In this document: positions 29,391-50,859 of the stretch, piece after piece
Position numbering within the stretch: position 1 is the first letter of the stretch
Layout: each line of letters opens with the position of its first letter
Assembly: GCA_028687915.1 (NCBI GenBank)
Contig: JAQTZF010000001.1
Location: forward strand, 101,969-165,968
DNA length: 64,000 nt
Direction: 5' to 3'
From: Candidatus Daviesbacteria bacterium
GTDB lineage: Bacteria; Patescibacteriota; Microgenomatia; Daviesbacterales; UBA10151
The notes under the pieces: model-generated
Seen by the model: only the letters and a program-made list of their open reading frames with translations
Told to the model about the DNA's origin: nothing
Database searches by the model: none
Program-made: the position numbers and the translations under genes

Positions 29391-31124
29391 TTATTTCTTC
29401 TCTACATTAAATAATGGACCAACAATAGAAATATTTGCCGGAGCTCTTAAATTAAAGAAATTCTTAAATTCGTTTCCTCCAAAAGATTGTGATCCACCAT
29501 CTCCTGATATAGAGACATTAGTGGTCATCCCTGAACCAAAATCAGCTGAAACAGAGACGCTTGAAATAGAATTAAATGGAGTAATGCTACGACTGCGTAG
29601 TTCCTGTTTAACCCTATCAGCATTCCATGTCTCCTGACCTGCTGGATTACCTTTATCCGGCTGGTAAAGATGCTCCTGAGTAGAAGAATCATTTCGGGAA
29701 AGTAACAGCACATTAACGATATCTGCTAGTTCATCAGATTTTAACCAGGCTGATTTACCATACTCTTTTCTGTATCCTTGTGCAGCATAAAGACAAGGAG
29801 AATCTTTATCATAAGATTTAGCCATTAAATCAGCAAAACTACTAACATCACCAGTAGTATCTCTCATTCTTTTAGTATAAGAAGTTCCCCCTCCCCAAAC
29901 ATCAGCTGAGGTAAAAGTATAACCTCCTGCAGTAGAAGCAAACCAACCTTTAATTGGCTGTCCCCCTGAACTCATAATTTTACCTTTTGTGGCTTCAACA
30001 GCTGCAATCCAGGCAGAGGAATTTAATTCTTTTTTAACAACCTGATCAGATTGACTTGGACGTACATAACCTTTTGATTTTTGGATTGCCAACCCATATG
30101 AACGTGCTGCAATAGCCTGCGCTTGTAATGCTGCAGCTGGCCAGCTAGTCGGCATTTCATAAAGGTGTTTTAAGTATTCATCTAAACTCATTGACTCATT
30201 ATTAAAAGTTTGACCAAATTCATTGGTACCATCTACTTTTATGGTTTCCCCTTCGTGACCACTGCTAAATTCAAAGTTTTGGAAATATGCCCGAAGTATA
30301 TCTTCAGCTGACTGACCGGCTTTAGCTCTGCCCAATGCACCATATTGATTCATTCCCACCCGGTGTGGAATACCAAAAGTAAAAAAAGCAAAAGCTGGTG
30401 AGAATCCAGGATTAATATTTCTATCATCAGTACAGATTAAGGGTCCAGCTCCCAAACTGGTAGGTAAATTTAAACTTCCTAACCTGGCATTAATAATTTC
30501 CTGTTGCTTGGCAGACAAACTAGCTATTTGTTTACTTAAAGTTGACTGATAATCCTTCGCCTTATTTACCTCTCCCCCAATAAAGGCTGCATTCTTATCA
30601 ACTTCAACTTGCATAGAAGCCAAACTTTTTTTATCTTTTTCAAGCTTGTCTTTTTGAGTAATTAAGTCCAGCATATCAGCTGTAACTTGAGAAATCACAC
30701 TTTGGTCCTCTTTGGTAGCTGCCTGGCGATAAGATAGCTCACGTAAAAGGTCTCCTGATCCAACACTGGAGAAAATTACAGTCAGGGGTGAAGCCATGTA
30801 AGAACGAATATAATAAGATCTGACTCTTTGCGAAAGCAATGATTGCTGAACAACTAATTTATCAGTCCTGATACTAATATCTTTTTCCTTCTGCTTAATA
30901 CTGTTTGATAAACTAACTAACTTATTTTGAATTTGAGCCAATTGAATTTTTAAAGCATTCAGTTGTCCTTCTAAAGGTTTGGTTGCTGCCACAGATTTTT
31001 CGCGGGCAGCAGATAATTCATTAATCTGTTTTTGTAAATCCTCCACTTCATCAGCACGAATAACAAAAGGCTGATAAATAAGAACTAACAATAATAAAGG
31101 AATAAGCAGAAAAACTTTTCTCAT
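29391..31124 (-). CDS. Secreted coiled-coil plus SpoIID/LytB-domain protein (cell-wall amidase enhancer-like).
   Basis: Signal peptide and a roughly 200-aa coiled-coil region with heptad-like periodicity. The downstream segment PHRVGMNQYGALGRAKAGQSAEDILRAYF matches the SpoIID signature msQyGA-gmA-G--y-eIL-hYY. Confidence 0.55.
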   Translation of the reverse strand: MRKVFLLIPLLLLVLIYQPFVIRADEVEDLQKQINELSAAREKSVAATKPLEGQLNALKIQLAQIQNKLVSLSNSIKQKEKDISIRTDKLVVQQSLLSQRVRSYYIRSYMASPLTVIFSSVGSGDLLRELSYRQAATKEDQSVISQVTADMLDLITQKDKLEKDKKSLASMQVEVDKNAAFIGGEVNKAKDYQSTLSKQIASLSAKQQEIINARLGSLNLPTSLGAGPLICTDDRNINPGFSPAFAFFTFGIPHRVGMNQYGALGRAKAGQSAEDILRAYFQNFEFSSGHEGETIKVDGTNEFGQTFNNESMSLDEYLKHLYEMPTSWPAAALQAQAIAARSYGLAIQKSKGYVRPSQSDQVVKKELNSSAWIAAVEATKGKIMSSGGQPIKGWFASTAGGYTFTSADVWGGGTSYTKRMRDTTGDVSSFADLMAKSYDKDSPCLYAAQGYRKEYGKSAWLKSDELADIVNVLLLSRNDSSTQEHLYQPDKGNPAGQETWNADRVKQELRSRSITPFNSISSVSVSADFGSGMTTNVSISGDGGSQSFGGNEFKNFFNLRAPANISIVGPLFNVEKK

Positions 31125-31224: not shown

Positions 31225-31632
31225 ATGTCCATCTTTTTAAGAACTCTTTTATTAACATTATTTTTACTTATTTTTCTCTCTTCCTCTCGCTTAGCTCTCG
31301 CTGCTGATCCTCCCGGAGGCGCAGGTGAGGCTTGTCCTAATGGAGCCTCTGGTATTAACACTGCTCTTGGATGTGTACCTACTGAACCCTCCGCCTTTAT
31401 TCAGGCTGTATCCCGTTTGCTAAGTGGTATTGGAGGAGGGATTGCCCTTCTTCTTATGATTGCTGGATCTTTTAGAATGATTACCTCTGGTGGCAATCCT
31501 GATGGTGTAAAAGCTGGTTCTGAACAATTTACCTCTGCTTTGATTGGATTATTATTTATTATTTTTGCTGTGCTACTATTAAAAGTAATCGGGGTAGATA
31601 TTTTAAATATCCCAGGATTTGGATCTATTTAA
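31225..31632 (+). CDS. VirB2/TrbC-like pilin paralog 1 (signal peptide plus two TM helices).
   Basis: Cleavable signal peptide ...LALA|AD, a Cys pair, then TM-ITSGGNPDG-amphipathic-TM. This is the same architecture as the five downstream paralogs. Confidence 0.5.
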   Translation: MSIFLRTLLLTLFLLIFLSSSRLALAADPPGGAGEACPNGASGINTALGCVPTEPSAFIQAVSRLLSGIGGGIALLLMIAGSFRMITSGGNPDGVKAGSEQFTSALIGLLFIIFAVLLLKVIGVDILNIPGFGSI

Positions 31633-31635
31633 TAT

Positions 31636-32010
31636 ATGACTAAACTACTTGCACAAGGATTAACAATACCAGGTCTAACAGGAACACCAATCCCTATTCC
31701 AGGAGTTGGTGGTGAATCCACTGTACGAGACGCCACCATAGGAGGATTCCTCACTCCTCTACTTGATGTAGTTTTCTTAATTGCTTCTGTTTTAATGTTT
31801 GTTTGGATGGTTTGGGGCATTATGCAATATATTTTTGCGGGAGGGGAAAAAGAAAAACTCGCTAAAGCCAGGTCCAGAATCACCTGGGCGATTGTTGGTT
31901 TTTGTATTGTTTTACTTTCTTTTACTATTTCACAGTATGCTAAAGAAATTTTTCCACCCAATTCAGACCCAAACAGCGAACAAACTGTAACAACCGTTTC
32001 AACACCATAA
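31636..32010 (+). CDS. VirB2/TrbC-like pilin paralog 2.
   Basis: TM-FAGGEKEKLAKARSRITWAIVGF-TM, with the shared S/AGG(E/D)KEK motif. Confidence 0.5.
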   Translation: MTKLLAQGLTIPGLTGTPIPIPGVGGESTVRDATIGGFLTPLLDVVFLIASVLMFVWMVWGIMQYIFAGGEKEKLAKARSRITWAIVGFCIVLLSFTISQYAKEIFPPNSDPNSEQTVTTVSTP

Positions 32011-32011
32011 C

Positions 32012-32317
32012 ATGACACCAACACCTGTTAATTTAAAAAGTCAATTTGGATTCGGTTATTTTGAAAATTTAGGTCAGGGTTTTAGTCTTTTAGTGATGCC
32101 TATTTTTGAAATTGCTGGCGTGGCTGTTATTATTTACCTACTTATAGGAGGCATTAAATATATGACCTCAGCTGGAGATAAAAACGCGGTGGCTTCTGCC
32201 CAGCAAATGATTACCCATGCTATTATTGGATTTATATTATTGGTATTATTATTTGTAATAGTACAATTCGTACCAGAATTTTTTGGAGCTGGTGCATTAA
32301 AGATTATAGGAAGATGA
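32012..32317 (+). CDS. VirB2/TrbC-like pilin paralog 3.
   Basis: TM-TSAGDKNAVASAQQMITHAIIGF-TM. The stop/start sits tight against the neighbouring genes. Confidence 0.5.
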   Translation: MTPTPVNLKSQFGFGYFENLGQGFSLLVMPIFEIAGVAVIIYLLIGGIKYMTSAGDKNAVASAQQMITHAIIGFILLVLLFVIVQFVPEFFGAGALKIIGR

Positions 32318-32652
32318 ATCAATTACTAGCAGCAAACCCATCAAGCGTCATAGGAACCATTACCCCTCCTCCTGGTATTAAAGATTTGGTGGATAAAGGC
32401 GGCGCTGGTGGAATTAATTCTGTTTTAACAAGTAGTATTATTTTAATCTACCAAGTGGCAATTGTTTTATTTGTCTTCATGATTGTCTTTGGTGCTTTGC
32501 AATGGATTATCTCCGGAGGAGAAAAAGAAAAAATTGCTGCTGCTCAGGGAAGAATTACCAATGCTGTTATTGGTTTGGTTATTTTAGGACTAGCCTGGGT
32601 TATTGTCTCTGTTTTAGGTAATTTTACTGGAATTAAAGTTGGGGGTGTTTAA
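32314..32652 (+). CDS. VirB2/TrbC-like pilin paralog 4.
   Basis: QWIISGGEKEKIAAAQGRITNAVIGLVILGLAWVIVSV, nearly identical to paralog 5. Confidence 0.5.
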   Translation: MNQLLAANPSSVIGTITPPPGIKDLVDKGGAGGINSVLTSSIILIYQVAIVLFVFMIVFGALQWIISGGEKEKIAAAQGRITNAVIGLVILGLAWVIVSVLGNFTGIKVGGV

Positions 32653-32701
32653 AACCAACCCAAGACTTGACAAGGGTTTTATTGTATGCAAACATTAATT
32701 C

Positions 32702-33061
32702 ATGATCCAAGAAGTTTTAGCAGCTGTTAGCCCCACCCCGATAGTAGTTGATTTAGCCAATGTTGGTGTTGGTATTCCTGCAGATACAAGTGTGGGTCTT
32801 ATCATCGGAAATGCCATCAGAATTATTATGATGATTGCCTTAATTGGTGTTTTGGCAATGTTAATTTTTGGGGCTTTTCAATGGATTGTTTCCGGAGGAG
32901 AAAAAGAAAAAGTAGCTTCTGCCAGAGGACGAATTACCAATGCTTTAATTGGATTAGCTATTTTAGGATTAGCTTTTGTAATAGTAACTGTAGCTGGAAA
33001 CTTAGTTAATATAAATATCTTTGATATTAAAATTCCAAATCTTGCTAACCCAGCTCCTTAA
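32702..33061 (+). CDS. VirB2/TrbC-like pilin paralog 5.
   Basis: QWIVSGGEKEKVASARGRITNALIGLAILGLAFVIVTV. Confidence 0.5.
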   Translation: MIQEVLAAVSPTPIVVDLANVGVGIPADTSVGLIIGNAIRIIMMIALIGVLAMLIFGAFQWIVSGGEKEKVASARGRITNALIGLAILGLAFVIVTVAGNLVNINIFDIKIPNLANPAP

Positions 33062-33120
33062 TCAATTCTGGCTACCCCTCCTTGCTTGACCTGATTTCTT
33101 CTTTTTAGTACTGTTAATAT

Positions 33121-33480
33121 ATGAAAAAATTCCTAGTCTTAATTCTTAATTCTCTTTTCTTAATGATTTATACCCCGGTTTATGCTGATAATCCGGGACC
33201 TGCAGGACCCAAACAATTACAGGAACTTTTTATGCGAATTATTAACCTGGCTGCAGAGGCTGCTTTTGTTGTTTTACTTATCATGTTAGTTTACGCCGGC
33301 ATCAAATTTTTAACTTCTGGTGGGGACCCAAAAGCAATTGGAGCAGCTGGGGGCACCATCACCTGGGCATTGTTAGGAATATTATTTATGGCAATTGGCT
33401 GGTTACTGCTACTATTAATCAAAAATTTTACAGGAGTAGATGTAACACAATTTTGTATTGGTTTTAATGGTTGCCAGTAA
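33121..33480 (+). CDS. VirB2/TrbC-like pilin paralog 6 (with signal peptide).
   Basis: Signal peptide ...PVYA|DNPGPAGP, then TM-TSGGDPKAIGAAGGTITWALLGILF-TM. Confidence 0.5.
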   Translation: MKKFLVLILNSLFLMIYTPVYADNPGPAGPKQLQELFMRIINLAAEAAFVVLLIMLVYAGIKFLTSGGDPKAIGAAGGTITWALLGILFMAIGWLLLLLIKNFTGVDVTQFCIGFNGCQ

Positions 33481-40899: not shown

Positions 40900-40983
40900 A
40901 GTACTAGATACATTAAGAAGAAACCAAATTGATCTCTTTTGAGATGCTTGCGAGTAAAGTTTTCACGGGTTATACCTATAACT

Positions 40984-42141
40984 ATGGAACCACACCCTAT
41001 CCCACAAAATGTTACATCTTTTGAATTCCACTTAGTTGGAGACATGACTCTTAAGCAGTTTGCCTATCTTGGTGCAGGCCTGGGAATGGCTTATTTATTA
41101 TATGCCACCATGTTCTTTTCTCTGCCAATTGTGGCTATCCCTTTAATTTTGGTATCTACTATATTAGGCGTGGCATTTGCTTTTGTTCCTATCTACGACC
41201 GGCCATTTGATCATTGGGTCTCAGCCTTTTTTAAAGCAGTTTATTCTCCAACTAAAGCTTCTTTTAAAATAAAATATGACCCTAAACTAAAAGTTGAACC
41301 AAACGATCCTTTCTTAAAGGATAGATTACAATTATACCTTTCAACTATGGGAATGACTGTTAATTTATGGGATAAAGCAGCAACTACTCAACCAAGAACA
41401 ACTCAAACACAATCAACCCCAACAGCCTTACAAGAAAAAGAAGTTGCTCTGGCAGAAAATTTAATTAGTAAAACTATGGATAATATTCAGACACAGACAC
41501 AACCATCAGCCTCAGAAAAATTACCAAGTCAGCAGGAATTAACTAATTTAGTAGAAATGGCAAAACAAGCACAATTATTACAGGGAAAAATTTCAGATAC
41601 AGAAAATTTAATCAAACAAATGACAAGCAGCACCAAGCAAGCAGAAGCATCACAAGTTCAATCTAGTTTAAAAGCCTTGATTCAGCAAACAGAAGAATTG
41701 TATAAAAAAACATCTACTATGAATCAAGCAACTCCTCATACAGCTCAACCTCAAACAGCAGCCATACCACAAGTACCAAGCATTCAGGCTGTTACTCAAC
41801 CAGTTGCCCCTCCAAAAGTAACTGTGGTACAACCACTGGCCCACAAAGAAACACAGGTGGTCTTAACCACCACCCCAAATATCATTAATGGAATGGTAAG
41901 TGACGAAGCTGGAAATTTCATAGAAAATGTCATTGTTATTATTCACGATAAAGAAGGTATTCCTGTTCGAGCATTAAAGACGAATAAGTTAGGTCAATTT
42001 GCCGGAGCAACTCCATTACCCCTGGGTGTCTACACCATTACTTTGGAGAAAGATAATTTTACCTTCCAAACCCTACAACTCACACTGGATAATTCAGTCT
42101 TAGGACCACTGCAAATCATCGCCAAAAAGGGAGGGCAATAG
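40984..42141 (+). CDS. PrgI-family (VirB3-like) T4SS membrane protein fused to a long Q/T-rich linker and a C-terminal carboxypeptidase-regulatory-like beta-sandwich.
   Basis: N-terminus FEFHLVGDMTLKQFAYLGAGLGMAYLLYATMFF...VAFAFVPIYDRPFDHW matches the PrgI family pattern. C-terminus IINGMVSDEAGNFIENVIVIIHDKEGIPVRALKTNKLGQFAGATPLPLGVYTITLEKDNF matches the CarboxypepD_reg pattern (GxVxDxxGxPIxxAxVxL...TDxxGxFxxxxLxxGxYTL). Start taken at MEPHPIP. Confidence 0.55.
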   Translation: MEPHPIPQNVTSFEFHLVGDMTLKQFAYLGAGLGMAYLLYATMFFSLPIVAIPLILVSTILGVAFAFVPIYDRPFDHWVSAFFKAVYSPTKASFKIKYDPKLKVEPNDPFLKDRLQLYLSTMGMTVNLWDKAATTQPRTTQTQSTPTALQEKEVALAENLISKTMDNIQTQTQPSASEKLPSQQELTNLVEMAKQAQLLQGKISDTENLIKQMTSSTKQAEASQVQSSLKALIQQTEELYKKTSTMNQATPHTAQPQTAAIPQVPSIQAVTQPVAPPKVTVVQPLAHKETQVVLTTTPNIINGMVSDEAGNFIENVIVIIHDKEGIPVRALKTNKLGQFAGATPLPLGVYTITLEKDNFTFQTLQLTLDNSVLGPLQIIAKKGGQ

Positions 42142-42143
42142 AA

Positions 42144-43043
42144 TTGACCACCAGCCAACAATTTATTCCTATTCAGGATGTTAATAAGGATTTAGTTTTT
42201 CAAAAAGATGGCAGTGTCGGCATTATTATCTCTGTTTCAGCAGTTAACTTTGCCCTGCTGTTTGAAACAGAACAAATATCTATCATTGATTCTTTTGCCG
42301 GGCTTTTAAATTCTTTATCTTTTCCTATCCAAATAGTTATCTATTCTAAAATCATGGATGTGTCATCTTATTTACACACTATTGATAATGCTTTAGCAAA
42401 ACAAACCAATCCTAACTTAAAAAAGATGACTTTAAGCTATCGCGGGTTTGTGGAAAAAAGCATTAAAGATAATAACGTGCTGGATAAAAAGTTTTATGTT
42501 TGTATTAAATTAACCTCTCTTGAGTTAGGTTTATTACCTTCTAACATGGAAGAAAAAACTAAAAAGGTGGCAACATTGCTTGAACCACGAAGAGATCATT
42601 TAATCAGGCAATTAGAGCGTTTAGGATTAAAAGCCAAACAACTATCTACAGAGGAGATTATTAAACTCTTTTATGAAATATATAATCCACCCATTACTGC
42701 TTCTGTTGCCCTGCCTGTACAAAGCAATATTAAATCTAGCCCCTTACTGGAAATTAATAAACCAGAAGTAATTCCTCAAACCCCTAAAGTAGAGGATAAT
42801 TTACCACCAAAACTGCGACCAATTAGAGCTAATTTGACTCAGCAAGTATCAACAACAGTAGTTCCACCTGCTCCTACTCCTGCACAAGCACCAATTACAC
42901 CACCAGTCATTCCAAAACCACCCACTCCGGTTGCTGCTCCTTTAACTAACCTATCTCCTATCACAGCAGCTAATTTAACATCTAATGCTTCTACTTTTAC
43001 ATCTCCTTTTGTGGTTGAAGAACTACCTGATGACGGACCCTAA
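42144..43043 (+). CDS. T4SS protein resembling the N-terminal domain of VirB4/CagE/TrbE, possibly the detached N-terminal part of a split VirB4, with a Pro/Thr-rich C-terminal tail.
   Basis: FIPIQDVNKDLVFQKDGSVGIIISVSAVNFALLFETEQISIIDSFAGLLNSLSFPIQIV follows the VirB4 N-terminal domain pattern (F-p--i-dg-i--kdGs-g-vl-v---n--l-s--E---l---f---Ln-L--piQi). The last 80 aa are low-complexity P/T/A. Confidence 0.4.
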   Translation: MTTSQQFIPIQDVNKDLVFQKDGSVGIIISVSAVNFALLFETEQISIIDSFAGLLNSLSFPIQIVIYSKIMDVSSYLHTIDNALAKQTNPNLKKMTLSYRGFVEKSIKDNNVLDKKFYVCIKLTSLELGLLPSNMEEKTKKVATLLEPRRDHLIRQLERLGLKAKQLSTEEIIKLFYEIYNPPITASVALPVQSNIKSSPLLEINKPEVIPQTPKVEDNLPPKLRPIRANLTQQVSTTVVPPAPTPAQAPITPPVIPKPPTPVAAPLTNLSPITAANLTSNASTFTSPFVVEELPDDGP

Positions 43044-44790
43044 ACAAAAACAATTAACTTTTGAAGATGCGGTTGCCCCCTATGAAGTAGAGGTTGATTT
43101 TTCGTTCCTAAAAATTAACCACCGCTATTTCCGTTCCTTTTTTGTATCTTCTTATCCGCGCTATGTTGAACCAAATTGGCTGGAGCCATTAATTTCATTT
43201 GAGCACTCAATGGTTTTATCAATGTTTATCTACCCTACCAGTTCAGCTGGCATTTTGGATGATTTAAAAAGAAAGATTGCTGAAATGGAAGCCACTATTC
43301 AAACTGATCAGGAAAGGGGGAGAATTGTTAATCCTACGGTTACAGTAGCTTTGGATGATGCCAAAGCATTACAGGAGCAACTTGCCAAAGGATCGGAAAG
43401 ATTTTTCCAGTTTAGTTTATATATTAATGTGCCCTCAGACTCTATTGAAGAATTAAATAATAAGTCACAGCTGGTTCAATCTACACTAGGCAGTATTTCT
43501 ATTGATTCTCATCCACTTTATTTACAAATGAAAGAAGGGTTTGAAAGCACACTGCCAATTGGACAAGATCCTTTATATCTTGCCCACAATATGGACACTA
43601 CCTCACTTGCCACCACATTTCCTTTTGTTTCCTCAGAGCTAACCTCACCAGATGGAGTTATTTATGGCATTAATGCCCATAACGATTCTTTAATTATTTT
43701 TGATAGGTTTAGCCAGGAAAACGCAAATTCTGTAGTTTTTGCAACAGCCGGTGCCGGTAAATCATATTTTGTAAAATTAGAATCTCTCCGTTCTTTAATG
43801 TTGGGCACAGAAGTAATTATTATTGACCCGGAAAAAGAATATGTAGATTTAGCCAAAGCTGTAGGGGGAGATTATATAAATTTTTCCACCACTTCACCTG
43901 TAAAGATTAATCCTTTTGACTTACCAGATATTTTAAATAGCGAAGAAGATGAATTAGGAAGAAAGATTTTATCTTTAACTGGATTTTTACGCTTGGTTTT
44001 AGGAGACCTCACTGCCAACGAAGTAGCAGTTTTAGATAGAGCCTTAAATGCCACTTATAAGTTAAAGGGGATTACAGCAAATGTTTTTAATAAAACAGAT
44101 CCTGCCAGTAAAATAAAAGTTGAGTCCCCGTTGATGGAAGATTTATATAAAGTGCTTATTGGCATGGAGGACAGCCTGGCGGGAAGCCTAGCTATAAGAT
44201 TGGAAAGGTTTATCAAAGGTTCTTTGGCTGGTATTTTTTCTGCTCAATCAAATATTAATATTCAAAACCCTTTTACTGTCTTTTCTGTTCGTGAATTACC
44301 AGACCAGTTAAGACCATTAGCTATGTATTTAATCCTTGATTATATTTGGACAAAAATCCGCAGAGAAATTAAAAAAAGGATTTTAGTGGTGGATGAGGCT
44401 TGGTATATGATGAAATACCCTGATTCTGCTTCTTTTTTAGTAGAAATGGTTAAAAGATCTAGGAAATATTACCTTGGAGTAACCACTATTAGCCAGGATG
44501 TAGAGGATTTCCTAGGACAAGACCGGGGCAAAGAAATCATTTCCAACTCAGCAATGCAGATATTATTAAAACAAGCACCTGTGTCTATTGAAAAAATAGG
44601 CGCTGTTTTTAATTTATCTCAGGGTGAAAAAAGACTGCTAACCACGGCTGGAGTAGGACAGGGGTTGTTTTTTGCTGGAAATGTACACATTGCCATGTCT
44701 ATTGTCGCCTCAGAAGAGGAGCATATCTTAATCACAACAAACCCCCGAGAAATATTGGAACGCCAGGAAAAAGAAAAAGGAGTTAGCTAA
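43030..44790 (+). CDS. virB4: VirB4-family T4SS ATPase (TraC/TrbE/PrgJ-like).
   Basis: N-terminal INHRYFRSFFVSSYPRYVEPNWLEPL, the classic VirB4 segment; Walker A ATAGAGKSYFVK; Walker B ILVVDEAW; C-terminal NPFDLP and TISQDVEDF motifs. Start taken at MTDPKQ (ATG 43030), overlapping the previous ORF by 14 nt. Confidence 0.8.
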   Translation: MTDPKQKQLTFEDAVAPYEVEVDFSFLKINHRYFRSFFVSSYPRYVEPNWLEPLISFEHSMVLSMFIYPTSSAGILDDLKRKIAEMEATIQTDQERGRIVNPTVTVALDDAKALQEQLAKGSERFFQFSLYINVPSDSIEELNNKSQLVQSTLGSISIDSHPLYLQMKEGFESTLPIGQDPLYLAHNMDTTSLATTFPFVSSELTSPDGVIYGINAHNDSLIIFDRFSQENANSVVFATAGAGKSYFVKLESLRSLMLGTEVIIIDPEKEYVDLAKAVGGDYINFSTTSPVKINPFDLPDILNSEEDELGRKILSLTGFLRLVLGDLTANEVAVLDRALNATYKLKGITANVFNKTDPASKIKVESPLMEDLYKVLIGMEDSLAGSLAIRLERFIKGSLAGIFSAQSNINIQNPFTVFSVRELPDQLRPLAMYLILDYIWTKIRREIKKRILVVDEAWYMMKYPDSASFLVEMVKRSRKYYLGVTTISQDVEDFLGQDRGKEIISNSAMQILLKQAPVSIEKIGAVFNLSQGEKRLLTTAGVGQGLFFAGNVHIAMSIVASEEEHILITTNPREILERQEKEKGVS

Positions 44791-44792
44791 TC

Positions 44793-46514
44793 ATGGCTGC
44801 CTTAAATCAAAAATTAATAGAAGACACCATACATTTAGTAGAAACATACCAAAAAAGCACAGAAGATTCAGCTTTTAGGAGACGCTTTAATTCGGCAATT
44901 GCCAGAGATGTTAATGCAACTTATAAAAACCGTCCGTTAAAATTATATTTTGAAGTACTGGCAAGTATTAATAATCCTAAATATGGAGAATCATATAAAA
45001 ATATTCAGCGCCTGGTTAAACATGATGACGAAGGAATCATTTCAAAAGCCCTGCTTAGAGTAGACCAAAATGATCTAAAGCATTTATATGCAGCAGCAAA
45101 AGATAATACTAACTCAACAAAATACCCTGATAAAGAAATCAAAGATATAAACAACATCGAAGAGACCATAAAAGATCCCAACCAAAAACGAGAAGCTCAT
45201 AAAAAGCGACTTGAAGAAACAAGCTATCTTGCTGTTGAAAAAAAGACACCTACCTCAAGTGAAATAGAAAAACCTGAAGAAAAAACAGGCCCTGGCTCTT
45301 CCCCAGAATACAAAAAATCATATAATCCAGCCACCCAGGAGGAAAAAGTCAGACTAGAAGCAGCTTTTAACCAAACAAGACCTGAAGTTTCACAGAATGT
45401 TTTAGTGGGACCAAGCGGTGAGCCAATTAGAAATATTTATTCTGAAGAACCGCCACAGGAAATATTTGAACCCACCTCTTCAGAACCAGACAGCTCGTCA
45501 TTACCTCAAATACCTGATTTTGGTGGTATTTCACGCACAACCAACTTTGCCAAGAATATATTTAAAGGGGGAGAAGCCGTAGAAACATTAGGAGCTGAAG
45601 CAGGAGTAAGAATGGCTGCTGGAAAAGCAGCTGTAGCAGGAGCAGAAAAAGTTATTGCCAAAGCAGGTGCAGGAACAGCCACTAGAATTGGTGCAGGATT
45701 ATTAGCGAGAGCTGGATTTACAGCTGCTGCAGGAGCAGCCGCTACAGGTGTTGGAGTACCTGTGGCAATAATTATTACCCTGGTGACTGCTTTTGGAAGT
45801 CAAATCAAGAAACTAGGTAAGTTATTGCTTCAGGTTACAGTTGCAATTACATGTGCTTTTATTCTAATGTTTTTTTGGAATTGGGGAGAAAAAATGAATT
45901 CACTACTTCCTCCTTATACTGTCGGCGAAGCTGCAGAATTGCCAACAGTCACACCAACAACTACACCTTCTCCAACTGGCCCAAACCCAACACCTGCTCC
46001 CGGCGTTACTGCCAACTGCCCCATCTCTGGTGGAAATATCAGTTGCGGCTCACAAAATACAAATTATTACGCCTGTCCAGGCGGGCATTGCAGTCTTGCA
46101 TATCGTCGATCTACTCCAATAAATGAAACTAATTGTAATCGGTATCCAGCAACAGCTTATGGTATGGATATTTTGGCAAGTGCAGGGCAGGTTGTTTCCA
46201 TCCCTACTATTAGAGACACCGATGGAACAGTAAGAAACTTAGAATGTTCTTTTGTTTATCAAGATGCATCAGGAGAAGCAATAAATCAATTTAACTGTAT
46301 TGCGGTTGGAAGCACTATCAGTCCACCTGATCATTACTATATTCAATTTCACCACCTTAGAGCAGTAATCCCCTCAGGACCGTATAGAACAGGGAGTCCA
46401 GCTGGTTATGTTTTAAATGACCATACCCATGTTCAAATCGGCAGAAATGGAGTCTGTCAAGGTACATCTATCTCGTCTTGTATCGTTCCTGAAGAAACTC
46501 TACAATGTTATTAG
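44793..46514 (+). CDS. Membrane-anchored M23-family peptidase (putative T4SS-associated peptidoglycan hydrolase).
   Basis: Central TM helix (VAIIITLVTAF...ITCAFILMFFW). The C-terminal domain carries YGMDILASAGQVVSIP (M23 HxxxD-region analog), FHHLRAV, and HTHVQIG (the HxH motif), in the order expected for lysostaphin-type M23 peptidases, plus a Cys-rich insert. Confidence 0.55.
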   Translation: MAALNQKLIEDTIHLVETYQKSTEDSAFRRRFNSAIARDVNATYKNRPLKLYFEVLASINNPKYGESYKNIQRLVKHDDEGIISKALLRVDQNDLKHLYAAAKDNTNSTKYPDKEIKDINNIEETIKDPNQKREAHKKRLEETSYLAVEKKTPTSSEIEKPEEKTGPGSSPEYKKSYNPATQEEKVRLEAAFNQTRPEVSQNVLVGPSGEPIRNIYSEEPPQEIFEPTSSEPDSSSLPQIPDFGGISRTTNFAKNIFKGGEAVETLGAEAGVRMAAGKAAVAGAEKVIAKAGAGTATRIGAGLLARAGFTAAAGAAATGVGVPVAIIITLVTAFGSQIKKLGKLLLQVTVAITCAFILMFFWNWGEKMNSLLPPYTVGEAAELPTVTPTTTPSPTGPNPTPAPGVTANCPISGGNISCGSQNTNYYACPGGHCSLAYRRSTPINETNCNRYPATAYGMDILASAGQVVSIPTIRDTDGTVRNLECSFVYQDASGEAINQFNCIAVGSTISPPDHYYIQFHHLRAVIPSGPYRTGSPAGYVLNDHTHVQIGRNGVCQGTSISSCIVPEETLQCY

Positions 46515-46515
46515 A

Positions 46516-47019
46516 ATGAACAAAAAAGTACTAATTATACTACTACCTTTTGTGGTTGTTATTATTGGATTGGCTGCTTTATTGCTTTTCCCAAAAAAAT
46601 CTCAGATTACCCCAACTGTAATTTCTAGCCTTACTCCAACCCCTACCCAAACTGCGATTTTAAAACCATTAGTTGTAAAACCACCTACAGACCAAGAACT
46701 AGGACTAGTCTCTGTTGTTCCATCACCTGATCCTACCGGACAAAACAAAATTTCCCCAATCGAACGAATTACTTTTACTTTTAATAAAAGCGTTGACCCT
46801 ACTACTTTGGAATTTAATTCACAACCTGAAGTGGAACTAGAAAAGTATTTTTCCGAGAATAATACCAAACTATTGATTCAACCTCAGGGATTGGCTTTTT
46901 GGAAACCAAACACTGATTATGTTTTAACTATTAGAAAACAACTGAGGTCAAAGGATGGATTTAGCCTAAAAGAAGACATTATGTATAATCTAAAAGCAAT
47001 TACTCAAGGAGGAGAATAA
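46516..47019 (+). CDS. Membrane-anchored bacterial Ig-like (Big_5/SbsA-like) domain protein.
   Basis: N-terminal TM helix, then LVSVVPSPDPTGQNKISPIERITFTFNKSVDPTTLEF...TDYVLTI, the Ig-like pattern (v-s-sPadga--v----i-ltFsepvd---l). Start at ATG 46516, 1 nt after the upstream stop. Confidence 0.45.
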   Translation: MNKKVLIILLPFVVVIIGLAALLLFPKKSQITPTVISSLTPTPTQTAILKPLVVKPPTDQELGLVSVVPSPDPTGQNKISPIERITFTFNKSVDPTTLEFNSQPEVELEKYFSENNTKLLIQPQGLAFWKPNTDYVLTIRKQLRSKDGFSLKEDIMYNLKAITQGGE

Positions 47020-47020
47020 A

Positions 47021-47473
47021 ATGGCTAATTTAAGCTCAAAACAAAAAGTTATTGGTGTTATTGCTATCATAGGCACAATATTAATATTAATCTTCCAGTC
47101 TGGGTTTTACAGTAAACCTGCTGCAAAAAGAGAGGAAATAAATAACCCTGCTACTCAAAACCCAGAAGTAGTTTCTACATCTCCCAACCCCTTGGAAAAA
47201 GCAATTATTTGGGGAACCACACCAATCGAAATTACTTTTAATCTTTCTGTCCAGAATATTCCTGAACTAAAATATACATTTGAGCCAGAATCAGATATAA
47301 AAGCAGAGCTTCTAAACGACCGTAAAACTGTAAGATTTACACCAAATAAGCCTTTACCGCTGGGTGCTGACTATACCTTAACTATTCCAGCAGGCGCTAA
47401 GTTTGATGATGATAAAACTCTGGGTAAGGATTATAAAGTTCATTTTAGAACCATAGAGTATAGGGGTGTTTAA
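47021..47473 (+). CDS. Membrane-anchored Ig-like domain protein, a paralog of the previous gene.
   Basis: TM helix plus VVSTSPNPLEKAIIWGTTPIEITFNLSV...ADYTLTIPAG. Confidence 0.45.
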   Translation: MANLSSKQKVIGVIAIIGTILILIFQSGFYSKPAAKREEINNPATQNPEVVSTSPNPLEKAIIWGTTPIEITFNLSVQNIPELKYTFEPESDIKAELLNDRKTVRFTPNKPLPLGADYTLTIPAGAKFDDDKTLGKDYKVHFRTIEYRGV

Positions 47474-48570
47474 GATAAATTAACAGGCATTACGATATAT
47501 TCCAAACCCTCTTCTCCAACTGGCTTAAAAATAGCAGCAGAAAGAAGTCCTGATAATTCTATGATCACCTGGGATGAATTAAAGGCAGATAAACTATCTT
47601 GTAAATATTTAGTACTAAAGGAAATCTGAAGGTCTTCCCCTTCTACTTCTGCATCAATTTCTTTTTTCTGATTACCTAATTCTTTTGTTTCTGAGGTTAA
47701 CACTAGTTTTGATTTCAAATTTTGTAGTTTTACAGTATTAGCTTCACCTCTGGCAAACACAGAAGCCAGTTTAACCGCTTTTAGCAGCTCACTCCTACTT
47801 GTGATAATTCTTGCTTTGATCTCAGTTGGAACAATTTTTTCCCAGGCGGGAAACGACCCTTCGATTAATCGGGAAGAAATTTGTGTATTACCAAAAGAAA
47901 AAATGACCTGATTTTGATCCTCTGAAACAGCAATTTGAATACTATCTGCTTCGTCCTCGCTAATAAGCCTCACTACTTCTTCAAATGTGCGTCTGGGCAC
48001 CAATGCCTTAAAAGATGAGTCGCTTTCTGTCTCCACGCTTTTATGAGCCAAACGATAACCATCAGTTGCCACAAGCTGTAATTTTTTGTGGTTAATCTCA
48101 GTTAAAATACCTGTTAAGACTGGTCTACCATCATCAGCCGCGGCTGAAAAAACAATCTCAGGCAGAGCTTTAATTAATATTTTAGGATCTAATAAAGCAG
48201 CTTGTTTTCCTGATAAAGGAATATTTGGAAACTCTGTGGCGCTAATACCATTTAAAGTGGAGGAAAAAGTTGGGGTGGTTATTTCGATAGCTTCATCGCT
48301 GGCATTTATTTCAATCTTTTCACCAGAAAGGTTTGCAATTACATCAACCAACATCTTTGCGGGAATAGTTACTGCTCCTTCTTCTACCACATCTGCTTTC
48401 ACAGATTTCACAACACCTATTTCCAGGTTGGTAGCTGATATTTTTATTCTATCTGTTTGTGCTTCTATTAAAACATTACCTAAAACAGGTAATTGAGATC
48501 TAATACCTGCAGAACGAGAGACAGAAGAAAGTATTGGTATTAAATCCTGCTGTAAAATTGTAAATTTCAT
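47470..48570 (-). CDS. dnaN: DNA polymerase III beta sliding clamp.
   Basis: MKFTILQQDLIPILSSVSRSAGIRSQLPVLGNVLIEAQTDRIKISATNLEIGV..., 366 aa with a three-domain clamp pattern, downstream of dnaA. Confidence 0.85.
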   Translation of the reverse strand: MKFTILQQDLIPILSSVSRSAGIRSQLPVLGNVLIEAQTDRIKISATNLEIGVVKSVKADVVEEGAVTIPAKMLVDVIANLSGEKIEINASDEAIEITTPTFSSTLNGISATEFPNIPLSGKQAALLDPKILIKALPEIVFSAAADDGRPVLTGILTEINHKKLQLVATDGYRLAHKSVETESDSSFKALVPRRTFEEVVRLISEDEADSIQIAVSEDQNQVIFSFGNTQISSRLIEGSFPAWEKIVPTEIKARIITSRSELLKAVKLASVFARGEANTVKLQNLKSKLVLTSETKELGNQKKEIDAEVEGEDLQISFSTKYLQDSLSAFNSSQVIIELSGLLSAAIFKPVGEEGLEYIVMPVNLS

Positions 48571-48577
48571 ATACTAA

Positions 48578-49030
48578 TTACTCTTCCTGGGCAGAAATGT
48601 ACTTGTGGGCATCCTCATCAGAGATCTTAATCAAGCGAAAATGCACCCGCCCAGTAACTACTAGGTTTTTAATGTGTTTCTCTTCTTCTGTCAAGGTAGC
48701 AAAGTTACCATTTTTAACTTCAATAAAATCAATTCGTTCATTATTCTTTATTCCAACAAAATCTATTGGAGATCCGAGGGGAATAATTCGATCGTAATCA
48801 TAGCGCAACTGCGCATAAGCTAGTAACTCTGCCACTTTACCTTTTTGAGGATTAATTGATCCTTGTATGGTTTGTAATACTTTGGTTGGTAAATCTGCTG
48901 CTTGTTTATAAAGGGTGATTAAATCTGTTGGGATTTCTTGTGGTTTTTGTTTTGCATGAAGTCTTCCAAATAAATAAGTAATTACCAGTACGAGTATTCC
49001 TATTAGAATGTATATGTAATTTATATCCAT
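48578..49030 (-). CDS. Membrane-anchored PD-(D/E)xK nuclease-fold protein (Mrr-cat-like restriction-endonuclease-like).
   Basis: N-terminal TM helix, then ...PIDFVGIKNNERIDFIEVKNG..., which matches the D...(E/D)xK catalytic signature of Mrr_cat-type nucleases. Confidence 0.4.
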   Translation of the reverse strand: MDINYIYILIGILVLVITYLFGRLHAKQKPQEIPTDLITLYKQAADLPTKVLQTIQGSINPQKGKVAELLAYAQLRYDYDRIIPLGSPIDFVGIKNNERIDFIEVKNGNFATLTEEEKHIKNLVVTGRVHFRLIKISDEDAHKYISAQEE

Positions 49031-49368: not shown

Positions 49369-50700
49369 TTAAGCAGTCAGTGCTTGTTTTAGCTCAATTA
49401 AAACTCTTTGTATCTCTCTGTCTGTGCCAGAAGCTGTTCTGATTTTATCCACACCATGCAGGATAGTTGTGTGATCCCTTCCTCCAAGTAAATCCCCAAT
49501 CCTTTCATAAGGGATCTTACATTCCTCATATAAAAGATACATGGCTAATTGTCGTGGTAAAACCAACTCTTTTTTTCGTCTGGGACCAGTGATGTCTGCC
49601 ATTTTGGTGTTAAAGTAACGATTTATTTCAGAAAAAACCTTTTTATGGTCCAGCTTAATACTTGAGGGTTGAGGTTTGCCCAGATAATTTCTGATAAAGG
49701 CGGGGTTTAATTCTTGGTTGCTAAGCTTAGCAATCTGAATTATCTGCATTAGTTTTCCTTCTAACTCTCTGGCATTTGTTTCCACAAGCTCAGCAATTAA
49801 GATAATGCATTCTTCCGGAACAATATCTCCTTTTTCCCGACACCTGGCTTTAATAATTGCTATTCTGGTATCAAAATCTGGAAGTTGAATATCCACCATT
49901 AAACCTCCCTGAAAACGGGAGGCCAGCCTTCCTTCTAATTTTTGGATTTCATTAGGTGGTCTGTCTGAAGTTAAAATTATTTGAGCATTTTTGGCTTGAA
50001 GCTCATTAAATGTATGGAAGAATTCTTCCTGGGTAGAATCTCTGCCAGAAATAAACTGCACGTCATCAATTAAAAGTAATCCACAATTACGGTATTTAGC
50101 CCTAAAATCACCTGTTCTTTTAGTTTGAATACTTTGGATAAAGTCATTCATGAACTTTTCTGAGGAACAATAGATAATTTTTAGGTGTGGGTTCTTTTGA
50201 ATTAAGGCATTTCCCACAGCATGCATTAAATGAGTCTTCCCTACTCCTGTTCCACCATAGATAAATAAAGGGTTGTATGAAGTTCCAGGATTATTAATTA
50301 CTGCTTGTGCTGCTGCATAAGCTAGATTATTAGATAAGCCAACCATAAAGTTTTCAATTGAATATTTAGGATTTAGGCCGGTTTGTGATACATCGGGCGC
50401 TCTGACTTCAAAATCTAGCTCCAGGTCTGGTTCTGAGCTTATCCCTCCTTTTGTGTCTAATGAGGAATCAACCCTTAATTCAATGTGTAGGCTTTTACCA
50501 AAGGACTCCTCCACTGCTTTGGCCAGGTCGTCAATATATTTAGTGGAAAGCTGTTGCTTAATAAATCCTGAGGGGACATTGATAACAATATTTTCTTCAT
50601 CCACGCTCTCGAGCGCTGTTTTAGAAAACCATGTTTTATAGTTTGCCAAAGTGACTTGGTTTTTTAAAATCTTTAGAGTTTTAGACCATTGTTTTTCCAT
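49369..50700 (-). CDS. dnaA: Chromosomal replication initiator DnaA.
   Basis: AAA+ Walker A GGTGVGKTHLMHAVGN, Walker B LLLIDDVQF, sensor motifs, and a C-terminal DNA-binding domain (...LPRQLAMYLLYEECKIPYERIGDLLGGRDHTTILHG). Start taken at MEKQWSK (ATG 50698-50700). Confidence 0.9.
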   Translation of the reverse strand: MEKQWSKTLKILKNQVTLANYKTWFSKTALESVDEENIVINVPSGFIKQQLSTKYIDDLAKAVEESFGKSLHIELRVDSSLDTKGGISSEPDLELDFEVRAPDVSQTGLNPKYSIENFMVGLSNNLAYAAAQAVINNPGTSYNPLFIYGGTGVGKTHLMHAVGNALIQKNPHLKIIYCSSEKFMNDFIQSIQTKRTGDFRAKYRNCGLLLIDDVQFISGRDSTQEEFFHTFNELQAKNAQIILTSDRPPNEIQKLEGRLASRFQGGLMVDIQLPDFDTRIAIIKARCREKGDIVPEECIILIAELVETNARELEGKLMQIIQIAKLSNQELNPAFIRNYLGKPQPSSIKLDHKKVFSEINRYFNTKMADITGPRRKKELVLPRQLAMYLLYEECKIPYERIGDLLGGRDHTTILHGVDKIRTASGTDREIQRVLIELKQALTA

Positions 50701-50859
50701 AAGGTGTAAAGGGTAGGTTGAGGCAAGACCCAAACTTGATGGGGCTATCATAATGAAAAAGTTATCCACAGAAAAGATACCTAAACAGTGACGCACTATA
50801 TCAACTTTGTTTTCATTTAAAAATTGAAATTTATGAAATTAAATGTCATTATTTATTAA
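50701..50859. promoter_or_regulatory. dnaA upstream region with a perfect DnaA box and an AT-rich putative DNA-unwinding element.
   Basis: TTATCCACA at 50762-50770, followed by about 60 nt of more than 85% A+T (catttaaaaattgaaatttatgaaattaaatgtcattatttattaaatgaatatttt). Confidence 0.45.

Follow-up and report, generated by a model that had tools for sequence, protein, structure and literature searches.

Type IV secretion depends on VirB4, its signature ATPase and, to our knowledge, its one universal component. In a stretch of 64,000 nucleotides from a Candidatus Daviesbacteria bacterium (GenBank assembly GCA_028687915.1, contig JAQTZF010000001.1, positions 101,969 to 165,968 of the forward strand), hereafter called the window, this ATPase appears to be encoded by two overlapping open reading frames, ORF1 and ORF2, within a type IV secretion system (T4SS) gene cluster. 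The locus raises the question whether these are two genes in their own right or parts of an ordinary virB4 that has been broken, recoded or partly duplicated. The initial annotation of the locus had named a genuine split, a duplicated N-domain, a programmed frameshift and a recent pseudogenising frameshift as options. The analysis described here favours, with a probability of about 0.9, the reading that ORF1 and ORF2 are distinct genes, both conserved, which together are the equivalent of one full-length VirB4. The elements of the locus that the argument first requires are the following:

42128..42135, plus strand: Shine-Dalgarno-like sequence AGGGAGGG, 8 nt 5' of the TTG of ORF1, read from the sequence and putative in function
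42144..43043, plus strand: ORF1, TTG start, 299 amino acids, TrsD-like, N-terminal fragment of a split VirB4
43030..44790, plus strand: ORF2, ATG start at 43030, 586 amino acids, VirB4 (TrsE-like) ATPase without the N-proximal subdomain
43030..43043, plus strand: ORF1/ORF2 overlap ATGACGGACCCTAA, 14 nt, with the ATG of ORF2 within the Asp-Asp codons of ORF1

The frame of ORF2 is +1 relative to that of ORF1. The coordinates and frames, including the 14-nt overlap in another frame which had been noted initially, were confirmed from the sequence.

Collinearity with unsplit VirB4

A tblastn search of plasmids with the domain encoded by ORF1 led to conjugation loci of Firmicutes, and in plasmid pCCELLA01 of Carboxydocella thermautotrophica the match lay inside a single VirB4 of 754 amino acids. 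In BLASTP alignments with this protein, residues 4-180 of ORF1 corresponded to residues 11-175 (29 % identity, E 9e-21), and residues 7-577 of ORF2 to residues 180-749 (30 % identity, E 1e-70). Since the first alignment ends at residue 175 and the second resumes at residue 180, the breakpoint coincides with a linker of approximately five residues in the unsplit VirB4. ORF1 and ORF2 tile full-length VirB4 collinearly and without overlap, both in the profile models described below and in the single-chain protein. The initial remark that the two ORFs together reach the size of a full VirB4 is borne out by this coverage of consecutive parts of the 754-amino-acid protein.

Unsplit VirB4 proteins, represented by the CD1110 family, the pCCELLA01 protein and TrwK of plasmid R388, have the same domains in the same order as ORF1 followed by ORF2, and the N-terminal region of R388 TrwK has the same fold as ORF1. 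The unsplit protein is, however, one polypeptide with a junction of approximately five residues, whereas two polypeptides are encoded here and ORF1 continues into a tail of approximately 115 residues before its stop codon.

The ATPase encoded by ORF2

The following parts of ORF2 were located:

43651..44721, plus strand: C-terminal ATPase domain, ORF2 residues 208-564, from the phmmer match to PDB entry 4AG5
43750-43764, plus strand: Walker A motif GAGKS, ORF2 residues 241-245
44383-44403, plus strand: Walker B motif LVVDEAW, ORF2 residues 452-458

ORF2 matched the NCBIfam model conju_CD1110 (NF045971, VirB4-like conjugal transfer ATPase of the CD1110 family) with an E value of 5.8e-113, and its score of 378.6 bits exceeds the curated equivalog cutoff of 325 bits. 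ORF2 residues 4-555 correspond to positions 180-733 of 752 in this model and to positions 290-890 of 894 in VirB4_plasma, the NCBIfam model for VirB4 of Mycoplasma integrative and conjugative elements. Because the two matches begin only at positions 180 and 290, ORF2 is without the first approximately 180 residues of a long VirB4. Its Pfam matches are P-loop_TraG (1.6e-24), AAA_10 and DUF87. With phmmer, residues 208-564 matched the C-terminal domain of VirB4 from Thermoanaerobacter pseudethanolicus (4AG5, E 7.2e-46), and this homology, together with the location of both Walker motifs, substantiates the earlier observation that ORF2 carries the ATPase domain. Judged by its sequence, ORF2 is a bona fide VirB4.

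The segment INHRYFRSFFVSSYPRYVEPNWL (ORF2 residues 29-51) had been taken for the classic N-terminal segment of VirB4. It is indeed present in ORF2, but it belongs to the part of the full-length protein from residue 180 or so onward and not to its N-terminus. TrwK, TraC and members of the CD1110 family have a complete N-terminal domain in one polypeptide; ORF2 does not, and ORF1 supplies the missing part.

The N-terminal fragment encoded by ORF1

The part of ORF1 that corresponds to VirB4 is the following:

42144..42698, plus strand: globular alpha/beta domain, ORF1 residues 1-185, N-proximal subdomain of the VirB4 N-terminal domain

The NCBIfam models of full-length VirB4 matched ORF1 solely at their N-terminal ends (E 2.4e-10 to 3e-4). 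Residues 3-187 aligned with positions 103-282 of 894 in VirB4_plasma (E 2.4e-10), positions 2-170 of 752 in CD1110 (E 1.2e-5) and positions 2-172 of 800 in F-type TraC (E 3e-4). The NCBIfam TrsD/TraD model (NF041427) was matched at positions 16-200 of 201 (E 6.7e-8), and precomputed annotation assigns the TraC-like domain PF26593 to a protein 100 % identical to ORF1 (P0001) and to ORF1 homologues. An alignment of both ORFs to PF03135 (CagE_TrbE_VirB), which had been suggested as a check, gave no match for either of them in Pfam at E ≤ 1; the homology with VirB4 was seen instead via TraC_F_IV, PF26593 and the NCBIfam TrsD, CD1110 and VirB4_plasma models. The resemblance of ORF1 to the N-terminus of VirB4, as first proposed, is nevertheless real and far above chance on the strength of these alignments and of the BLASTP match to the unsplit protein.

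In an AlphaFold2 model of ORF1, built with 32 homologues, residues 11-180 form a mostly confident alpha/beta structure (means of 10-residue blocks mostly approximately 75-94, with one block at 67) and the tail is disordered. When this model was compared with the PDB by Foldseek, the best 14 matches were all R388 TrwK/VirB4 (top E 1.8e-4, probability 1.00). A profile of the ORF1 family found nothing among the PDB sequences at E ≤ 10, and the relation between ORF1 and TrwK is visible by fold comparison alone. Sequence and structure comparisons both support the homology of ORF1 with the N-terminal part of VirB4.

Conservation of the two-gene arrangement

At least 1373 ORF1 homologues were found (counted as clusters at 90 % identity), and among the matches listed all are stand-alone proteins of approximately 220-405 amino acids from Candidatus Daviesbacteria, Microgenomates and other Patescibacteria. 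A protein 100 % identical to ORF1 occurs in a Daviesbacteria metagenome-assembled genome, on a contig of 1.10 Mb. The orthologue of ORF2 lies directly 3' of that of ORF1 in 80 of 80 related loci. The junction was analysed in 76 distinct orthologous pairs from genomes of Daviesbacteria and other Patescibacteria, spanning 31-86 % identity. This comparison with orthologous loci, which the initial annotation had called for, showed the two-gene state to be kept in all 76.

The junction itself varies. The relative frames 0, 1 and 2 are found in 11, 31 and 34 pairs, respectively. Overlaps range from 1 to 59 nt, most commonly 4 nt (n = 21), their length not being conserved among relatives, and in 33 pairs a gap of 1-189 nt separates ORF1 from the first ATG of ORF2. 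In 26 of the 76 pairs the ORF2 frame opens solely after the ORF1 stop, so that these pairs cannot overlap, and in 22 of them stop codons lie between the ORFs, since the frames differ. A separate start codon close to the aligned N-terminus is present in all ORF2 orthologues. The 14-nt overlap is free of slippery and hungry-codon motifs; of the conserved overlap, conserved frame and slippery motif by which a programmed frameshift is recognised, none was found. In four relatives (loci L020, L049, L066 and L068) ORF1 and ORF2 are in one frame and the open frames are parted solely by the ORF1 stop.

The linker and C-terminal peptide of ORF1

Two elements make up the tail of ORF1:

42699..43004, plus strand: hypervariable Pro-rich linker, ORF1 residues 186-287, predicted to be disordered (pLDDT, the per-residue confidence score, approximately 45-69)
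43005..43025, plus strand: conserved C-terminal peptide PFVVEEL (TSPFVVEELPDDG), ORF1 residues 288-294

Residues 186-285 contain 21 % Pro and 60 % P/T/A/V/S, compared with 4 % Pro in residues 1-185, in agreement with the Pro/Thr-rich low-complexity tail that had been recognised at the outset. An alignment of 32 homologues showed a conserved globular domain, a linker variable in both length and sequence, and a near-invariant C-terminal peptide PF(V/I)VEEL, in which E292 and E293 are invariant. The strict pattern is present in 61 of 75 distinct ORF1 orthologues, with PFAVEEL or PFMVEEL in a few more, and the peptide always lies 1-8 residues from the stop.

When the window and 954 kb of related loci were scanned for PFVVEEL, every occurrence but one lay at the C-terminus of an ORF1 orthologue; the exception is a loose match (PFTTEEL) inside an unrelated ORF on the minus strand of the window. 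Being confined to these C-termini, the peptide is not a signal common to the neighbouring proteins. The Pro, Val, Glu and Leu codons that specify it show free synonymous variation, and loci in which ORF2 begins more than 100 nt further on have it as well, which together argue that the peptide is conserved at the protein level and is not a by-product of the ORF2 start.

The C-terminal peptide is also the sole part of ORF1 that aligned with ORF2 (residues 194-209), and the alignment was not significant (E 0.35-1.0). The ORF2 counterpart, ATTFPFVSSELTSPDG at 43618-43641 (residues 197-204), lies where the N-terminal domain meets the C-terminal one. The FPF(A/V/T)SSEL segment of ORF2 is invariant, and each of the two segments shows strong conservation within its family.

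In FtsZ, SSB and SspB, a disordered linker leads to a docking peptide that is conserved at the C-terminus. The same plan of a globular domain, a variable linker and a short conserved terminal peptide is found in ORF1, which is not homologous to any of the three. By this analogy it is conceivable, if rather doubtful, that PFVVEEL on its variable linker is a docking peptide which would anchor the N-fragment on the VirB4 hexamer or on some other T4SS partner, possibly by mimicking the junction segment of VirB4.

Comparison with TrsD/TrsE systems

Separate genes for the N-proximal part of VirB4 have been described before, both in pGO1 (TrsD beside TrsE) and in Patescibacteria (TrsD homologues). 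Plasmid pGO1 of Staphylococcus aureus, which belongs to the MPF-FATA class, carries trsC, trsD (227 amino acids), trsE (672 amino acids, DUF87) and genes for a membrane protein and a CHAP hydrolase; the names of TrsD and TrsE in pSK41 are TraD and TraE. In the window, the gene immediately 5' of ORF1 is the following:

40939..42141, plus strand: VirB3-like (PrgI family) membrane protein of 400 amino acids

This protein matched Pfam PrgI (PF12666) over residues 20-106 (E 1.1e-7), with a further match to CarboxypepD_reg (E 2.2e-6). The gene order in the window is PrgI-like, ORF1, ORF2 and the gene of a 573-amino-acid protein, and the order VirB3-like, TrsD-like, VirB4 is identical to that of pGO1. 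A VirB3-like gene also lies 5' of the ORF1 orthologue in two relatives (L001 and L004). In the window, in pGO1 and in the relatives alike, a separate gene stands between the VirB3-like gene and virB4; this is the position by which a TrsD-like gene is recognised and the one that ORF1 occupies. The PrgI domain of the 40939..42141 protein is fused to a Q/T/P-rich linker of approximately 200 amino acids and a C-terminal CarboxypepD_reg (Ig-like) domain. The protein far exceeds the usual length of VirB3/PrgI (approximately 100 amino acids), and its architecture recurs in relatives.

ORF2 matched pGO1 TrsE with an E value of 3e-48, from near the N-terminus of ORF2, and the ORF1 family matched pGO1 TrsD in hhalign with an E value of 1e-4 over 173 columns. 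The similarity of ORF1 to pGO1 TrsD is low (17 % identity in hhalign) and lies below the NCBIfam cutoff. Unlike ORF1, pGO1 TrsD has neither a Pro-rich tail nor the PFVVEEL peptide, and the peptide is also absent from more distant Patescibacteria orthologues, e.g. that of the WWE3 locus L079. Furthermore, pGO1 is a conjugative plasmid with a relaxase, whereas the locus described here is chromosomal and adjoins dnaN and dnaA. In Bacillus thuringiensis pHT77 and Clostridium perfringens pJFP838A, the ORF1 domain is likewise a small separate protein encoded directly 5' of the DUF87/VirB4 gene, preceded in pJFP838A by a PrgI-family gene.

Quinonero-Coronel et al. (2025, PMC12102498), in their survey of Patescibacteria, treat TrsD as a remote homologue of the VirB4 N-terminal part and report its homologues as the most abundant T4SS component recovered in these bacteria (2,272, of which 1,664 beside virB4). 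They also list a TrsD homologue as essential in Southlakia epibionticum and describe T4SS clusters without relaxases, near dnaA and dnaN and with arrays of VirB2-like pilins, especially in Microgenomatia. The TrsD-virB4 loci described there are the same in kind as that of the window, with its pilin array, dnaA and dnaN near and no relaxase nearby. Since the window fits all of these reported traits, the split is one more case of a published arrangement. The linker and C-terminal peptide of the Daviesbacteria-type proteins and the exact collinear breakpoint are not described in the sections of PMC12102498 considered here. TrsD is not mentioned in the main text of Guglielmini et al. (2014), and neither TrsD nor a split VirB4 is discussed in a 2025 FEMS review. 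The linker and PFVVEEL peptide are possibly new.

Alternative explanations of the split

A recent pseudogenising frameshift, or an indel introduced in assembly or sequencing, could have broken an ordinary virB4 of approximately 885 amino acids, as the 14-nt overlap in different frames and the VirB4-like summed lengths might suggest. Such an accident would not, however, be repeated in 76 distinct pairs of 31-86 % identity with a variable junction, three relative frames and 26 pairs that do not overlap. It would not place the ORF1 stop always 1-8 residues past a conserved peptide, nor leave a tail of approximately 115 amino acids where unsplit relatives join the parts by approximately five residues, and at least 1373 ORF1 homologues exist as clusters of stand-alone proteins. 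The probability that the gene is merely broken is regarded as negligible. The same variability of the junction bears on a programmed +1 ribosomal frameshift, or readthrough of the stop codon, by which a single VirB4 with an internal Pro-rich linker would be made. In the window and in the relatives closest to it, the ORFs overlap by 14 or 17 nt with ORF2 in the +1 frame, and the four relatives with both ORFs in one frame, separated solely by the ORF1 stop, would suit readthrough. All three frames are nevertheless used (0/1/2 in 11/31/34 pairs), and 22 of the 26 non-overlapping pairs are in different frames, with gaps of up to 189 nt among the pairs. The overlap is without a slippery or hungry-codon motif, each ORF2 orthologue has a start codon near its aligned N-terminus, and in pGO1 and other Firmicutes plasmids the two are separate genes with gaps between them. 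Recoding is thus hardly credible as an explanation.

It might also be argued that ORF1 is a duplicated N-domain paralogue beside a complete VirB4, or an unrelated T4SS protein. ORF2, with 586 amino acids, is as long as some complete VirB4 proteins of monoderms, pGO1 TrsE aligns with it from TrsE residue 36, and both ORFs open with a visually similar strand-rich pattern. This visual likeness was not matched by homology: when the profile of the ORF1 family was set against residues 1-217 of ORF2 in hhalign, the probability was 0.2 %, with just a 16-residue match in the tail, and BLASTP of ORF1 against ORF2 detected no domain homology. The ORFs map to consecutive, non-overlapping parts of VirB4 in the models and in the unsplit protein, and both sequence and structure tie ORF1 to VirB4, so that duplication and an unrelated origin are very unlikely. 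The genuine split offered by the initial annotation, in contrast to its other options, agrees with the collinear tiling of a single-chain VirB4 and with the conservation in 76 pairs.

Some points weigh against treating ORF1 and ORF2 as the two parts of one VirB4. ORF1 scored 32.6 bits with the NCBIfam TrsD model NF041427, for which the curated cutoff is 200 bits, and 19.1 bits (E 7e-4) with Pfam TraC_F_IV (PF11130), for which the gathering threshold is 28.1; by such curated thresholds ORF1 is a distant homologue and not a member of the staphylococcal-type TrsD subfamily. The hhalign probability with the single pGO1 TrsD sequence was just 56 %. In addition, many MPF-FATA VirB4 proteins have approximately 590-670 amino acids, and forms of the length of ORF2 stand alone in some monoderm systems. 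Because a VirB4 of this length may work alone, ORF1 may have an accessory role instead of being an indispensable half. In evolutionary terms, a long VirB4 could have been split in two, or TrsD could have been joined to a short VirB4.

Genes surrounding the locus

The genes that follow virB4 in the window include the following:

44793..46514, plus strand: 573-amino-acid protein, in the position of pGO1 TrsF/TrsG (membrane protein, wall hydrolase)
47470..48570, minus strand: dnaN
48578..49030, minus strand: archaeal Holliday-junction resolvase-like protein
49369..50796, minus strand: dnaA

With dnaN, the resolvase-like gene and dnaA directly downstream, the T4SS cluster adjoins the replication origin. 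The position of the 44793..46514 gene is conserved in relatives, and it is from this position that a putative role corresponding to TrsF/TrsG is assigned to its product. The middle of the protein is hydrophobic and rich in Gly and Ala, and its C-terminal part is rich in Cys. The protein had no match in Pfam or NCBIfam, and its C-terminal 204 amino acids had no sequence match in the PDB. An M23-like C-terminal part, guessed by eye, was not supported by the Pfam, NCBIfam or PDB sequence searches. Between the T4SS genes and dnaN, at 46417-47473 on the plus strand, two small Big_5 (bacterial Ig-like) proteins with N-terminal hydrophobic segments are encoded, which are kept at the same place in relatives.

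Further upstream, six tandem small genes (31225-33480, plus strand) encode proteins of 101-135 amino acids, all of which matched Pfam T4SS_pilin (PF18895, E 5e-7 to 2e-10). They are a VirB2-like pilin array of the kind reported to be abundant in Microgenomatia. Near the array, a 577-amino-acid protein encoded on the minus strand (29391-31124) combines a SpoIID domain (E 3.5e-11) with a weak PcsB-like coiled coil and is a possible peptidoglycan-remodelling enzyme.

Proposed function and significance

In the two-gene reading, translation of ORF1 and ORF2 is probably coupled by the 14-nt overlap. ORF1 carries the first approximately 180 residues of the VirB4 N-terminal domain, and ORF2 the remainder together with the Walker A/B ATPase domain. 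In R388 structures, VirB3 binds the N-terminal domain of VirB4, and on this basis the two products are proposed to associate with the VirB3-like protein at the membrane through non-covalent contacts. Together they would re-form a hexameric motor resembling VirB4, to serve the T4SS that lies near the origin on the chromosome of this Candidatus Daviesbacteria genome. In the same reading, ORF1 has also gained in this lineage the disordered Pro-rich linker ending in PFVVEEL, to which a tether or docking role may be ascribed.

The finding affects the annotation of separate genes for the N-proximal subdomain (TrsD-like), which are now labelled "hypothetical", and cautions against calling such split loci pseudogenes. 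A separate TrsD-like polypeptide also affects structural modelling of the secretion machine of monoderms and Patescibacteria, and the linker with PFVVEEL is a concrete target for truncation. The T4SS of Patescibacteria has been reported as essential for their epibiotic lifestyle. If PFVVEEL does act as a docking peptide, the lineage would have evolved a non-covalent substitute for the lost covalent link, and the peptide would give a handle on how the VirB4 N-domain engages the motor in this essential system.

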